Made by a program: the position numbers and the translations under genes. The notes below the pieces were generated by a model. The model saw only the letters and a program-made list of their open reading frames with translations, made no database searches and was not told the DNA's origin. From a virus (taxonomy: Duplodnaviria; Heunggongvirae; Uroviricota; Caudoviricetes): 18,845 nucleotides of DNA. The DNA is taken from IMG/VR virus record IMGVR_UViG_3300015171_000003; one strand, 5' to 3'. Shown here piece by piece: positions 2,543 through 7,343 of this stretch. Every line of letters starts with the position of its first letter. Within the stretch, counting starts at the first letter, position 1.

Positions 2543-3494
2543 TCTTTGGCATAATTATTCCCATATTTCCATTAGGCATACTATGTCCAACAAATTCATC
2601 GGCGGTATGAAGACTAAATTTAGGTCTAGGCACCCAATTATTAAATGTAGCTTCCATTCCATCAATAAATGTCTGACACATATTCTTGGAATTTAAATCT
2701 CCATTAATCATCCAATTTCTACCAATTAATCCTCTTCTTTTTCTTTCCTCTCTACCTAATAAATAAAGTTTCTTAATAGCCTTGGCTCCATCTACCCAAT
2801 CACTATGATCATCAAAAATATATGGCGTTGGTACACTTCCTTGTAAAATTCTCTTTACTGGATATAATGGCACTACCCATTCTCCATGTGTCTTATATCT
2901 GCCATCGTGATTAGACCCCCATTCTTCCGTAAATACAATTGGCTTACCATTATCATCTAAGAACCCACATTGATCTTGAAGACCTCCTGTTACAGTTACA
3001 ATAATAGGAGTTCCAGACATTACACTTTCCGCAGTACCTAATCCAAATCCTTCATTGGAAGCCATATTAATTGTTACATCAACCATGTTATACAATAGGT
3101 TCATTTCTTCTTCAGATGCTCTACCTGTAGAGAAAAGAATGTTTTGTTGTGGACATACCGCATCTCTTGTTGCAATCAAATCTGTGCCAGCCTCATCGAC
3201 AGGATGGGTATGCATTAACAACAAACATTTATCAGACTTTTCTTTTGTGAGAGATTCACAAAATACTCTAAAAGCAAGCATAACATCACTTGTTTGTTTT
3301 CTGCGAATGTTTCTGTTATTATAAAACACAATGAAATCATATTCCTTATCTTTGAATAATTCCTTCTTTTTCTTTTCAATAGCATCAAAATCTTTTTGTT
3401 CTGAATATGGAAAAAATGTTTTTGAATTAATACCGTGTGGACAATATTGGATTAATGTCTTACTTTCTACTTTGTTGTTAATTTTAAAGGCCAT
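2535..3494 (-). CDS. GT4 glycosyltransferase, C-terminal (nucleotide-sugar-binding) portion
   Basis: YCPHGIN, FYNNRNIRRKQTSD, NEGFGLGTAESVMSGTPII motifs. Confidence 0.88.
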   Translation of the reverse strand: MAFKINNKVESKTLIQYCPHGINSKTFFPYSEQKDFDAIEKKKKELFKDKEYDFIVFYNNRNIRRKQTSDVMLAFRVFCESLTKEKSDKCLLLMHTHPVDEAGTDLIATRDAVCPQQNILFSTGRASEEEMNLLYNMVDVTINMASNEGFGLGTAESVMSGTPIIVTVTGGLQDQCGFLDDNGKPIVFTEEWGSNHDGRYKTHGEWVVPLYPVKRILQGSVPTPYIFDDHSDWVDGAKAIKKLYLLGREERKRRGLIGRNWMINGDLNSKNMCQTFIDGMEATFNNWVPRPKFSLHTADEFVGHSMPNGNMGIIMPKID

Positions 3495-3498
3495 AATT

Positions 3499-4109
3499 TT
3501 ATTTTAAATCATTTAATGTAATCCATTTATTTTTTCCAAGAACTGCTTTATTAATATTTTCTGTTTGTTTACTAATTGCAAATAAAGTATCACAAGATTC
3601 ATAATAAGATCTATTATACATGGGATAAATTACGTCATCCCATATATTATAGTATATTATAGGTAATTTTTGCCTCAATTCATGTTCTATTTGAAATACA
3701 AATCCAAAAAATCTAGGATCGGTGAATAATCCAAGTGCATCTGGATTCTCTATCGACATAATTTGTCTAATAATATCTGGATTAGAATATCCGGTACAAG
3801 GATAAATTATTACATAAGCATCTTTAACACCAGTTTTTTCTGCTGTTGCTTGTGATAAATCTACTCTTTTACCTTCTTCTGGATGTTGCAATAATCCTCC
3901 TACACAACACCAATCATATTTATGTACTGTTCCAAATACTAATTCTCTTGCCATCGTTGCGATTCCACTTGAAAATCTAATTTTTCATTGCCCAAGATGT
4001 TACCACCTTGGGCTTCACCAATATCATCTGCCAAAAGAAAAATTTTCTTCTTCTTTAGCTGATGACTATTGGCCCCCTCCAAGGCTACTGTTTCATTGTT
4101 ATTACTCAT
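3499..4109 (-). CDS. GT4 glycosyltransferase, N-terminal portion, interrupted by a 41-nt insertion (joined product about 189 aa)
   Basis: 4109-4020 encodes MSNNNETVALEGANSHQLKKKKIFLLADDI; a different frame resumes at 3978 with RFSSGIATMARELVFG. Joined, this gives the expected GT-B beta1/Gly-loop start KKIFLLADDIRFSSGIATMARE. The ORF track shows only 3499-3954. Confidence 0.8.
3979..4019 (-). other. 41-nt coding-gap element with 10-bp GNRA hairpin, flanked by an ATT direct repeat
   Basis: ATT|GGTGAAGCCCAAGGTG-GTAA-CATCTTGGGCAATGAAAAATT|AGA; stem 4013-4004 pairs with 3999-3990; 18/41 GC. Confidence 0.8.
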
Positions 4110-4121
4110 ATATTTTTATTA

Positions 4122-4337
4122 TTAAAACGCACTCCCACTTTTTTCCAATAAAGTTGACAAAGATTCTATTTTTGATTTAAATTTATCATCTCTAAGGTAC
4201 AGATAGATTGATCTATTTATCAATTTTTGTAAGGTGAAGTTTGTAAATGCCGCGACATTTTTAAAAGATTCATATTCAGTTTCAATTACATTAATTGAAG
4301 TTTTTGTTATATTATTTTTATCAGTAAATGCGGTCAT
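4122..4337 (-). CDS. small protein, possibly ribbon-helix-helix DNA-binding
   Basis: TKTSINV strand followed by two predicted helices (FTLQKLINRSIYLYL); fold assignment is an inference. Confidence 0.55.
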   Translation of the reverse strand: MTAFTDKNNITKTSINVIETEYESFKNVAAFTNFTLQKLINRSIYLYLRDDKFKSKIESLSTLLEKSGSAF

Positions 4338-5491: not shown

Positions 5492-6730
5492 CTATTGTCT
5501 TTCATTACAAAAGTCAATATTATTAGTTTTTTGAGTACAAGGAACTATAGATTCCTTATCTAAAACTTTCCAATAGAAACCTGTCCTATTGTTCTGCTTT
5601 AACCGTTCTTGTTCTCCGATCAGAGACAAGTTAAAAGATAGATTAACTGAAGCATTATAATCCGAATCACATTCATAAGAACATGTTCCACATCTAAACT
5701 TCTTCTTCGTTCTATTACTTTTCCGTACCCATCCACATTTGTTACATCTTTGACTTGTGTAAGTCGGATTTAAACGGTTTACTTGGACACCAAGTAAATT
5801 ACATCTGTCCTCCAACTTGTCTAGGATTTGTGGATAATTCCAATGAGAAAGTTTTCGGCTTGTCCGAAATCCTTTTCTCAAATTTTTTATGTTTTCTATA
5901 TTAATTTGTTTAACATTATTCAAATTTAATTGATTTATACTCCAATTAACAAAATTCTTTCTATGAGTTTGTGATTTTCTAAAATTAACAGAACCACGTT
6001 TCTTTTCGGATATTTTATTTATGATTTTATCTAAAGAATATCCATGATTATCTTCTTTAGATTTAATTCCATTAGAACAATAAAATAAATCTGTCTTTCC
6101 AATATCAATCCCGACAACATTTCCAGTTTCTACTTTTTTTGGTTCTTCTAAATCAAATATGAATGTTATCTCATTTTTAGATAATCTTATTCCTTTCTTA
6201 AGTTTCCCATTTTTTAATATCTTATTAAAATGTTTTGTCTTTTTTATCGGAATTCCTATCTTTAATTTATTTCCAAGTGATGTTAATGTCAACCAGATAT
6301 CAAATGAAGTTTTATTATCAGAATCAATTTTTACAAATCTTTCATCCAGTTCACATTCTAAATTTTCTATATTTGGTTTGTTTTGATTTATATTATTATA
6401 AATTTTCTGTAACTTTCTCGCTTTCTTAAATTTTCCTTGTTCTTTAAATTTATTTATTATAAACAATCTTCTTTGTTGTTTGACTTTTGTTCCTCGAACA
6501 ATCCCACTTGTTTGTTTTCCTAAACATTGGATTGTTCTTGCGGATAACCACGTTTCTACATCAGATGTTAATTCTTTTGGTAACAATGTCGGAACTTTTT
6601 CTAAATCCAATAATTTATCAATAAAAATCTTAGAAACTCTTTTATATTCTTCTATAAAAAAGTCGATTTTATCTAATTTGTTTTTATTAGAAAATTTTAA
6701 AGTGGATTTAGAAGACCGGATCATGATCAA
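5492..6730 (-). CDS. tnpB: TnpB RNA-guided endonuclease (IS607-associated)
   Basis: RuvC-I GIDIG, RuvC-II IENI, PTYTSQRCNKC...CGTC zinc finger, RuvC-III DSDYNAS; catalytic D/E/D all present. Confidence 0.93.
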   Translation of the reverse strand: MIMIRSSKSTLKFSNKNKLDKIDFFIEEYKRVSKIFIDKLLDLEKVPTLLPKELTSDVETWLSARTIQCLGKQTSGIVRGTKVKQQRRLFIINKFKEQGKFKKARKLQKIYNNINQNKPNIENLECELDERFVKIDSDNKTSFDIWLTLTSLGNKLKIGIPIKKTKHFNKILKNGKLKKGIRLSKNEITFIFDLEEPKKVETGNVVGIDIGKTDLFYCSNGIKSKEDNHGYSLDKIINKISEKKRGSVNFRKSQTHRKNFVNWSINQLNLNNVKQINIENIKNLRKGFRTSRKLSHWNYPQILDKLEDRCNLLGVQVNRLNPTYTSQRCNKCGWVRKSNRTKKKFRCGTCSYECDSDYNASVNLSFNLSLIGEQERLKQNNRTGFYWKVLDKESIVPCTQKTNNIDFCNERQ

Positions 6731-7286
6731 GTTCTTTAATTAATTGTTCTGTTTTTCTCTTAGATCTTCTTTGTCCATAAATTCTAGCACAAAATGAAGT
6801 TATTACATTTACAAAATCTTGGATTAAATCTTCTTTTTCATTTAAAATTTGATTGACATAAATTACTTCACAATTTATATGTTTACATAAAGTATCTATG
6901 TATGAAGAACCAAATCTGCTTAATCTATCTCTATGTTCCACTACGAGTTTTGTGACTTTTCCTTCAGATAAAATTTTTAATAATTTTTTCCGTTTATCAT
7001 TTAAACCACTACCAATTTCTTTAATATTTTCATCTGTTTTCCATCCATTTGCATTACAATAACTAATTAATCTATTGGACTGGGATTCTAAATTAATTTT
7101 ATTTTCTGAAGAAGAAACTCTCGCATAAGTTATCACATAATCTTGTTTTATAATAAGATTTTCTTCTGGCACGATGATTGTGCCAGAAGGTAATTTATAT
7201 GCTAGAGGAAGTTCTCCTCTATTAAACATTAACCATGCAGTTCTGTATAATATTCCTTGTTTTTTTGCCCAATGACTTAACTTCAT
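6708..7286 (-). CDS. tnpA: IS607 TnpA serine recombinase (likely start MKLSHWAK at 7286)
   Basis: N-terminal MerR-like HTH, YARVSS catalytic Ser motif, EIGSGLN, VVEHRDRLSRFG, DFVNVITSFCARIYG. Confidence 0.95.
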   Translation of the reverse strand: MKLSHWAKKQGILYRTAWLMFNRGELPLAYKLPSGTIIVPEENLIIKQDYVITYARVSSSENKINLESQSNRLISYCNANGWKTDENIKEIGSGLNDKRKKLLKILSEGKVTKLVVEHRDRLSRFGSSYIDTLCKHINCEVIYVNQILNEKEDLIQDFVNVITSFCARIYGQRRSKRKTEQLIKELDHDPVF

Positions 7287-7313
7287 ACATGATAAGTATG
7301 AAATGGAAATATA

Positions 7314-7343
7314 AAACAATAAAAAATAATAAAAAACAATAAA
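7314..7343 (-). repeat. three tandem 10-bp direct repeats at the IS607 left end (TTTATTGTTT/TTTATTATTT/TTTATTGTTT)
   Basis: Read directly; consistent with TnpA-binding repeats known at IS607 ends. Confidence 0.75.

Follow-up and report, generated by a model that had tools for sequence, protein, structure and literature searches.

We analysed an 18,845-nt stretch of DNA from a virus of the Caudoviricetes (IMG/VR record IMGVR_UViG_3300015171_000003), hereafter the window, in which all genes lie on the minus strand. A GT-B glycosyltransferase is split here over three open reading frames (ORFs), at 4109-3939 (56 aa), 3954-3499 (151 aa), and 3494-2535 (319 aa, Glycos_transf_1). Our subject is the first of the two breaks, together with a long RNA hairpin (the rod) that is predicted to form in the codons leading up to it. 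Exon 1 of the N-terminal half (N-half) occupies 4109-4020 and has 30 codons (MSNNNETVALEGANSHQL followed by KKKKIFLLADDI), the last of which, ATT at 4022-4020, encodes the Ile of a DDI motif; we call it the take-off codon. Homologues read KKILLLCDDI and continue directly with R (an uninterrupted DDIR); in the window KKIFLLADDI ends at the take-off ATT, and exactly at that junction stand 41 nt that shift the frame (the gap, 4019-3979), beginning with GGT (neither a stop nor a rare codon) and ending with a second ATT (3981-3979), the putative landing codon. Exon 2 of the N-half (3978-3499) resumes at AGA (3978-3976) and reads RFSSGIATMARELVFGT...; its earliest in-frame ATG, at 3954, lies eight codons past the resumption point and overlaps the end of the first ORF. 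Joining the two frames over the gap restores the conserved sequence: DDI plus RFSSGIATMARE... from the AGA corresponds to DDIRFSSGVATMARE in the homologue P0125 and to DDIRMHSGIATMARE in Flavobacterium phage vB_FspM_immuto_2-6A, whose single-gene homologue reads ...KKILLLCDDIRMHSGIATMARE.... Downstream of the gap, both halves of the glycosyltransferase are intact.

We folded the minus-strand RNA from 4115 to 3960 (156 nt) with RNAfold, using dinucleotide shuffles as controls, and obtained -46.7 kcal/mol (z = -5.1). The rod consists of two helices with pair probabilities mostly of 0.7-1.0. In the outer helix, codons A-N-S-H-Q of the N-terminal extension (5′ arm, 4073-4061, with G4066 bulged) pair with GAT GAT ATT GGT (3′ arm, 4028-4017), that is, the two Asp codons, the take-off ATT and the first three nucleotides of the gap; it has 12 bp with pair probabilities of 0.72-1.0 (one pair 0.5) and covers the take-off codon; the rod's 3′ edge falls 1 nt beyond it. 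In the inner helix (4059-4030), formed by 4059-4048 and 4042-4030 with one U bulged, the QLKKK codons are paired to those for IFLLA, and a GAAAA loop is closed at 4047-4043. Both helices had been described, at these same positions, in an initial annotation of the window made from its sequence, and both were recovered in our predictions. That annotation also regarded the rod as complementary to the insertion, which proved incorrect: the insert contributes only the 3 nt GGT (4019-4017), and the 3′ arm is conserved exon-1 coding sequence, so that the rod pairs new N-terminal codons with conserved LLADDI codons.

The rod alone folds at -25.5 kcal/mol, compared to a mean of -13.3 (sd 3.3) for 1000 synonymous recodings sampled from the window's own codon usage, three of which equal it. 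When the synonymous codons were instead permuted within the 30 codons, 75 of 1000 permutations folded as well, a weakly significant result from a weak control, since there are few synonymous codons present to permute. This weak significance is what could be said for the rod being a chance fold of A+T-rich coding sequence; set against it are the z-score given above, the three in 1000 recodings, and the separation from uninterrupted alleles and the covariation described below, and we find a chance fold hardly credible. A search with the covariance models of Rfam 15 gave no match in 3800-4300 (E up to 1). We also considered an intrinsic terminator, which was rejected because no U-run follows the rod.

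Scanning IMG/VR, Logan and ENA assemblies, and JGI metagenomes by protein and by pattern yielded about 250 loci of this family. About 190 distinct alleles run uninterrupted through DD(I/L)R; 18 distinct alleles, including the window's, are interrupted, all of them at the DD(I/L)|R junction. The gaps measure 5 nt (TAATT, TGATT), 6 nt (TGACTT, TAACTC, TGACTA, TGAGTT), 8, 9, 39 (two alleles), 40, and 41 nt (the window), and the last triplet of the gap is readable by the tRNA of the take-off codon in 17 of the 18 alleles. The sole unmatched landing is found in L227 (3770-3870; ATT TGA GTT AGA). This mismatch may come from a sequencing error or from a dead copy, or near-cognate landing may be tolerated there. 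A TGA or TAA directly follows the take-off codon in 15 alleles; the three without a stop there, the window (GGT), L183 (GTT) and L240 (GGC), all have long gaps containing a tetraloop hairpin. Three other identities were rejected from these gaps: stop-codon readthrough is unable to serve those of 5, 8, 40, and 41 nt; a recoded TGA is contradicted by the other genes of L012, which are open under translation table 11, and by the existence of TAA alleles; and a mini-intron does not agree with gaps of 5-9 nt that show no known splicing signal.

The scans also gave negative or misleading results. A metagenome scan with the window's N-half found 54 loci, at most 62% identical, none of which is interrupted, and 15 of the 18 matches in a long-gap pattern scan were unrelated genes. 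Four proteins near L012 that start with MTSGI... were considered as further interrupted genes and rejected; of the two examined, L040 is cut short by the end of its contig and L041 by an Illumina adapter, and both are uninterrupted. The public metagenome contig L041 starts (L041:1-75) with Illumina adapter and index sequence joined to the glycosyltransferase gene, so that an artefact of assembly looks like an N-terminal truncation. P0169, which starts with MSSGIATMSRE on 12 contigs, is probably interrupted; its IMG/VR relative L210 is uninterrupted.

The rod and the gap go together: the rod is present in all 18 interrupted alleles and in none of 138 distinct uninterrupted ones. Each of the 18 folds as a three-tier hairpin of 18-26 bp whose 3′ edge falls between -4 and +3 nt relative to the final base of the take-off codon; within the closing 20 nt of exon 1, 13-20 nt are paired. 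For the duplex energy, the 24-nt segment that extends to 3 nt beyond the take-off codon was scored against the 82 nt upstream; the first six interrupted alleles gave -21.5 to -29.0 kcal/mol and the 138 uninterrupted alleles -4.2 to -15.7 kcal/mol (mean -8.8), ranges that do not overlap (Mann-Whitney p = 1.8e-5), and over the 16 interrupted alleles scored the range is -15.6 to -29.0 kcal/mol. The N-terminal extensions differ correspondingly: uninterrupted genes start with MKEGYIP..RKK or similar, whereas interrupted alleles have another extension, commonly MSN....RH(I/V)E(Q/K)..RKK, the codons of which make up the 5′ arm of the rod. Conservation of the extension in most alleles (..RH(I/V)E(Q/K)..RKK) might reflect a nascent-peptide signal, but it is inseparable from the constraint on the RNA.

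RNAalifold, applied to a MAFFT alignment that included the window, recovered only an 8-bp invariant core, because the window's 5′ arm lies at a non-homologous position. Covariation was measured in the 15 alignable alleles with a hand-set, fixed structure of 23 pairs, and the window was treated separately. In this set 80.9% of cells are paired, compared to at most 49% with slid partners; nine of the 23 pairs change on both sides; and the covariation score is 0.185 (0.137 +/- 0.011 in shuffles), which is reached by none of 500 shuffles. The clearest example comes from the second Asp codon, at its synonymous third base: GAC occurs with a G in the 5′ arm (six alleles) and GAT with an A (four alleles). 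In the window the 3′ arm is unusual (GCA GAT GAT ATT GGT versus TGT GAC GAY ATT), and its own two arms pair at -22.6 kcal/mol, as compared with -7.7 to -18.6 kcal/mol when paired with the arms of other alleles. The co-occurrence of rod and gap, the covariation, and the good fit of the window's arms to each other all agree with the earlier suggestion that the N-terminal codons are co-adapted.

The window's gap contains a hairpin of its own (4013-3990), with a 10-bp G+C-rich stem and a GUAA tetraloop, which starts 6 nt after the take-off codon, is predicted at a probability of 0.999, and conceals ATC at 3998-3996, which apart from the landing codon is the gap's sole Ile-type triplet. The same architecture, with other stem sequences, is found in L183 and L240 (which have one stem sequence in common) and in L230. 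These four long-gap alleles share a common order, namely rod, 3-8 nt, 10-bp tetraloop stem, A+U-rich tail, and landing codon, and in all of them Ile-type triplets within the gap are confined to the hairpin. As for a Shine-Dalgarno-like element, which in bypassing of the gene 60 type is placed about 6 nt 5′ of the landing codon, the window offers nothing beyond a GGGC located 8 nt ahead of its landing ATT, and L183 has GAGGGGGA, 6 nt before; gaps of 5-9 nt have no space for one.

The initial annotation had further proposed a helix between GCCTTGG (4085-4079) and CCAAGGT (4011-4005) that would compete with the gap hairpin, making the region a switch between mutually exclusive folds. The 7-bp complementarity is present, but its pair probability is 1e-4, and forcing the helix costs +5.9 kcal/mol of ensemble free energy because of the stability of the insert's own hairpin. 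In 28% of shuffles (chance P 0.28), a complementary run of at least 7 links the 41-nt gap to the 36 nt that lie upstream of the rod; moreover, the helix is impossible in the 14 alleles with gaps of 5-9 nt and is absent elsewhere. Being at chance level and thermodynamically negligible, it gives no support to a riboswitch-like two-fold switch. A small stem around the landing codon (3987-3970), pointed out in the same annotation, is indeed predicted (probability about 0.6-0.8), but it is weak (all A-U except one G-C pair) and particular to the window, since it is not present in the three other long-gap alleles; it is probably of no consequence.

The A-run at the end of the window's gap would allow another way of reaching exon 2, in which the gap is read as 13 extra codons and the ribosome then shifts to the -1 frame on GAA AAA T (3986-3980). 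Lys-tRNA would be able to re-pair there (from AAA 3983-3981 to AAA 3984-3982), and a weak stem follows. Such a shift, however, would add 14 residues to the conserved loop after strand beta-1 and would need translation through the 10-bp G+C-rich hairpin; it is inapplicable to L183, L240, and L230, which have in-frame stops in the gap, and to the gaps of 5-9 nt; and it leaves the matched codons and the rod unexplained. When a slippery heptamer (X XXY YYZ) with a stimulatory structure 5-9 nt downstream was looked for, the window was found to have only the run of five As, and the other alleles nothing comparable. We consider a -1 frameshift very improbable.

Given these comparisons, we judge it fairly probable that the rod acts as 5′ signal for a mobile cassette of translational bypassing located in the first 30 codons of a phage GT-B glycosyltransferase, and our best reading of this putative cassette is that it is analogous to, and not homologous with, mobA/gene 60 of phage T4. 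The cassette would have three parts: a replaced N-terminal extension, whose codons are reverse-complementary to the conserved (K)KILL(C/A/S)DD(I/L) codons, so that the two would fold as a hairpin of 18-26 bp with its 3′ edge at the take-off codon; a non-coding gap of 5-41 nt placed exactly between DD(I/L) and R; and a landing codon, the last triplet of the gap, that would be read by the same tRNA as the take-off codon. The role that we infer for the rod is derived from its geometry relative to the take-off codon. When ATT 4022-4020 occupies the P site with peptidyl-tRNA-Ile, the rod's 3′ arm would be melted inside the mRNA channel. The stretch of about 12 nt that adjoins the take-off codon on its 5′ side, which is the outer helix's 3′ arm, would be held inside the ribosome, while the inner helix would already have re-formed behind it, at the mRNA exit. 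The outer helix could then zip up nucleotide by nucleotide on the waiting 5′ arm as the mRNA exits, pulling the message through: the tRNA would leave ATT 4022-4020, the ribosome would slide, and the tRNA would re-pair at ATT 3981-3979. Decoding would restart at AGA to give ...LLADDI-RFSSGIATMARE..., restoring DDI-RFSSG. The rod would thereby act as the kind of “driver” that has been proposed for T4 gene 60 (bioRxiv 10.1101/2024.12.09.627546). In the window and the three other long-gap alleles, the 10-bp tetraloop hairpin of the gap may serve to shorten the single-stranded path and to hide internal Ile triplets. We put forward, tentatively, a more specific proposal that may well fail: that a spring-loaded hairpin on the exit side is the main and sufficient driver of this natural family of hops, with one kind of rod serving gaps of 5-41 nt, and that in the window the tetraloop hairpin of the gap replaces the stop after the take-off codon.

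The distribution of interrupted alleles is consistent with mobility. On a quick tree of 144 N-half sequences they are scattered, with six changes, at least four of which are forced by well-supported branches; interrupted and uninterrupted alleles form sister pairs (window/L047, L043/L130, L012/L123), and the nearest relatives of L012, 83% identical, are uninterrupted. In addition, the cassettes at L183:1384-1500 and L240:934-1063 have an identical rod and gap hairpin, with gaps of 39 and 40 nt, respectively, although the flanking downstream gene is only 74% identical. Such a 1-nt difference would not be tolerated in a translated segment, and the shared cassette is direct evidence both of movement between alleles and of a gap that does not serve as codons.

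In six of the 18 interrupted alleles, a homing-endonuclease-like gene adjoins the start of the glycosyltransferase or overlaps it. Four of these genes encode a protein of 305-313 aa with treble-clef zinc, DUF723, and a PvuRts1I-like nuclease (PHROG 559 “HNH endonuclease”, E 2.6e-68), and two encode a GIY-YIG-like protein with a NUMOD3 motif; neither family is found at the start of the 167 uninterrupted alleles with enough upstream sequence. In the window, as in about half of the interrupted alleles, only a conserved small ORF (71 aa, 4337-4122) lies upstream, and there is no homing-endonuclease gene between it and the start of the glycosyltransferase: the window's cassette lacks its endonuclease. 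If the parallel with mobA/gene 60 applies, the gap would probably shield the allele against cutting by the cassette's endonuclease. Two further ORFs were seen in this region of related loci. L012 has a second endonuclease-like ORF (L012:1034-1687, 218 aa, with a NUMOD1 motif) about 1.2 kb upstream, its abutting one being 306 aa; and in L047, the closest uninterrupted relative of the window, a 268-aa ORF of no known family (L047:2202-3008) overlaps the glycosyltransferase start, at the place where interrupted alleles carry endonuclease genes.

An alternative is that the cassette is no more than a scar of homing-endonuclease immunity. The gene would then be split or dead at this point, with translation ending in the gap or after it and the remainder being either not made or reinitiated (at ATG 3954 in the window, and at the ATG of R-M in several short-gap alleles), and the rod would have another role, such as slowing ribosomes or giving stability to the endonuclease transcript at its 3′ end. 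Several alleles do have an ATG directly after the landing codon, which is where gene callers start the protein, and in the window ATG 3954 overlaps the end of the first ORF; fission is evidently tolerated, as the same gene is split at a second site into two separately translated halves; and a gap-free close relative may exist. A scar leaves unexplained, however, why the take-off and landing codons match in 17 of the 18 alleles and why the edge of the rod is fixed at the take-off codon, and endonuclease-less cassettes retain the rod. Reinitiation in the window would lose eight conserved codons (RFSSGIAT) upstream of ATG 3954, and the landing codons CTT, CTC, and CTA of other alleles are unable to act as start codons. 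Furthermore, nine alleles have no in-frame Met for at least 50 codons past landing, or none within the 100 codons examined; therefore nearby termination-reinitiation cannot explain these alleles, which nevertheless keep the stretch open and conserved. We regard an immunity scar as unlikely.

Other observations weigh against bypassing, in the family or in the window. Our case for it comes from sequence comparison only, and in the window ribosomes could simply read on, giving the 56-aa product of the first ORF. The core of the outer helix is invariant because C-D-D is encoded there; most alleles belong to one cassette lineage, so the 18 alleles represent fewer than 18 independent events; and the landing codon of L227 is unmatched (ATT/GTT). 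In the window, the take-off codon is followed by GGT, which at 1.45% of codons is common, so that poor decoding in the A site is missing. No close relative with the window's own cassette was found and no second copy is known: an exact search of IMG/VR for the insert hairpin gave no match, and a homologue search with the 56-aa ORF returned only that ORF itself. Finally, a 201-nt contig from a lake metagenome (a single contig, depth 2.8), 92.6% identical to the window at 3786-3975, reads ...GAC ATT CGT with no gap, from which the window's insert may be recent; the allele could be recent, inefficient, or decayed.

Decay of this one copy can be put as a separate alternative, in which the family hops, and the window allele is non-functional and its rod an inherited relic. 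It would account for the common GGT and the missing stop after the take-off codon, for the divergent extension, for the lack of an endonuclease gene abutting the start and of a second copy of the cassette, and for the near relative without a gap. Against decay, the rod of the window shows a specific fit to the unusual 3′ arm found there (-22.6 kcal/mol versus -18.6 kcal/mol or weaker); L183 and L240 also have no stop after the take-off codon, yet have kept the rod, the hairpin, and the matched landing codon across a 1-nt indel; and both downstream halves of the gene are intact. We think it quite unlikely that the window carries a decayed copy.

A bypass cassette of the proposed kind has a close parallel in phage T4, in which a 50-nt bypass in gene 60 is carried by the MobA homing-endonuclease element (bioRxiv 10.1101/2022.08.31.505936; bioRxiv 10.1101/2024.12.09.627546). 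In both systems, a non-coding gap lies within a conserved motif of a phage enzyme; the codons of take-off and of landing are matched or wobble-matched, usually with a stop right after take-off; long gaps have a hairpin that hides cognate triplets, and the gap's 3′ part is A+U-rich; the element brings a new N-terminal extension, with mRNA structure 5′ of the take-off codon; and there is more than one homing-endonuclease family, copies without an endonuclease, and a host gene that is also split. The initial annotation had likened the rod to the 5′ stem-loop of gene 60, a comparison that we judge apt. Manning and Atkins found that this stem-loop is not conserved between clades and that MobA elements occur exclusively in Topo2L (bioRxiv 10.1101/2022.08.31.505936). 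The 5′ structure in the glycosyltransferase family is, by contrast, the one universally conserved signal of the putative hop.

The two systems share no sequence homology, and they differ in several other respects. The host gene is here a glycosyltransferase (Glycos_transf_1) and not the Toprim domain of the topoisomerase II large subunit, and the endonucleases are of DUF723/treble-clef and GIY-YIG/NUMOD3 types, unlike MobA. Gaps are mostly 5-9 nt, and four alleles have 39-41 nt; instead of being placed in a take-off stem-loop, the take-off codon is part of a long 5′ rod, in its 3′ arm; we saw no convincing Shine-Dalgarno-like element before landing; and the window has no stop or rare codon after take-off. 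Our search of the literature found no paper linking bypassing with a glycosyltransferase.

The mitochondria of the yeast Magnusiomyces capitatus reportedly contain “byp” elements, short G+C-rich hairpin inserts in A+T-rich coding sequence with many copies per genome. The glycosyltransferase cassettes resemble them in having matched or near-matched flanking codons, an A+U-rich 3′ part, mobility, and G+C-rich hairpin inserts. The byps are, however, those of a eukaryotic organelle, with no reported upstream rod, whereas here there is one site in one gene family and an obligatory 5′ hairpin. Short hops are also known from E. coli, in which peptidyl-tRNA detaches at a codon that has a stop after it and re-pairs a few nucleotides downstream at a matching codon, and this is what the alleles with gaps of 5-9 nt would require; but the E. 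coli hops are of low efficiency or engineered and are not known to have a dedicated conserved stimulator, whereas a conserved hairpin of 18-26 bp is found here at every natural site.

Long-range bypassing has rested on essentially one case from bacterial viruses, T4 gene 60 with its homologues, and on the yeast mitochondrial byps. Wills, Parsawar and Atkins proposed that pairing of the exiting mRNA is the “driver” of forward bypassing in gene 60, and whether such pairing drives movement has been called the main unsolved problem of the field (bioRxiv 10.1101/2024.12.09.627546). If our reading is true, an unrelated gene family, whose cassette is non-homologous and has no invariant signal other than the 5′ hairpin, would provide a variant series made by evolution for examining this debated model: there are at least 18 natural variants, differing in gap length, frame shift, stop after take-off, and gap hairpin, and these would make the driver hypothesis directly testable with simple reporters. 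It would also suggest that homing endonucleases have arrived more than once at interrupting a target without breaking its protein. For annotation, such genes are now called as truncated proteins or as two ORFs.

Two features of the surrounding sequence remain to be described. Upstream, at 5492-7319 (minus strand), is what we judged by sequence, without a family search, to be an IS607-type pair consisting of a 203-aa serine-recombinase-like ORF and a 412-aa TnpB-like ORF; it stands directly upstream of a PD-(D/E)XK nuclease gene, and L047 has no IS607-type element between its Apyc1-like gene and its nuclease gene. The second break in the glycosyltransferase (3494-3501) is a conserved fission, after which the C-terminal half (C-half; 3494-2535, Glycos_transf_1) is a separate gene; in the relatives, too, separate genes encode an N-half of about 176 aa and a C-half of about 319 aa. 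The window's halves are 4 nt apart with no ORF between them, and relatives have one to four ORFs there (compared at L047:3531-4533, L042:3465-4211, and L045:1658-2308). Several of these intervening ORFs are endonuclease-like: DUF559 in L047, NUMOD3 in L045, and two DUF723 proteins in the P0169 contigs.

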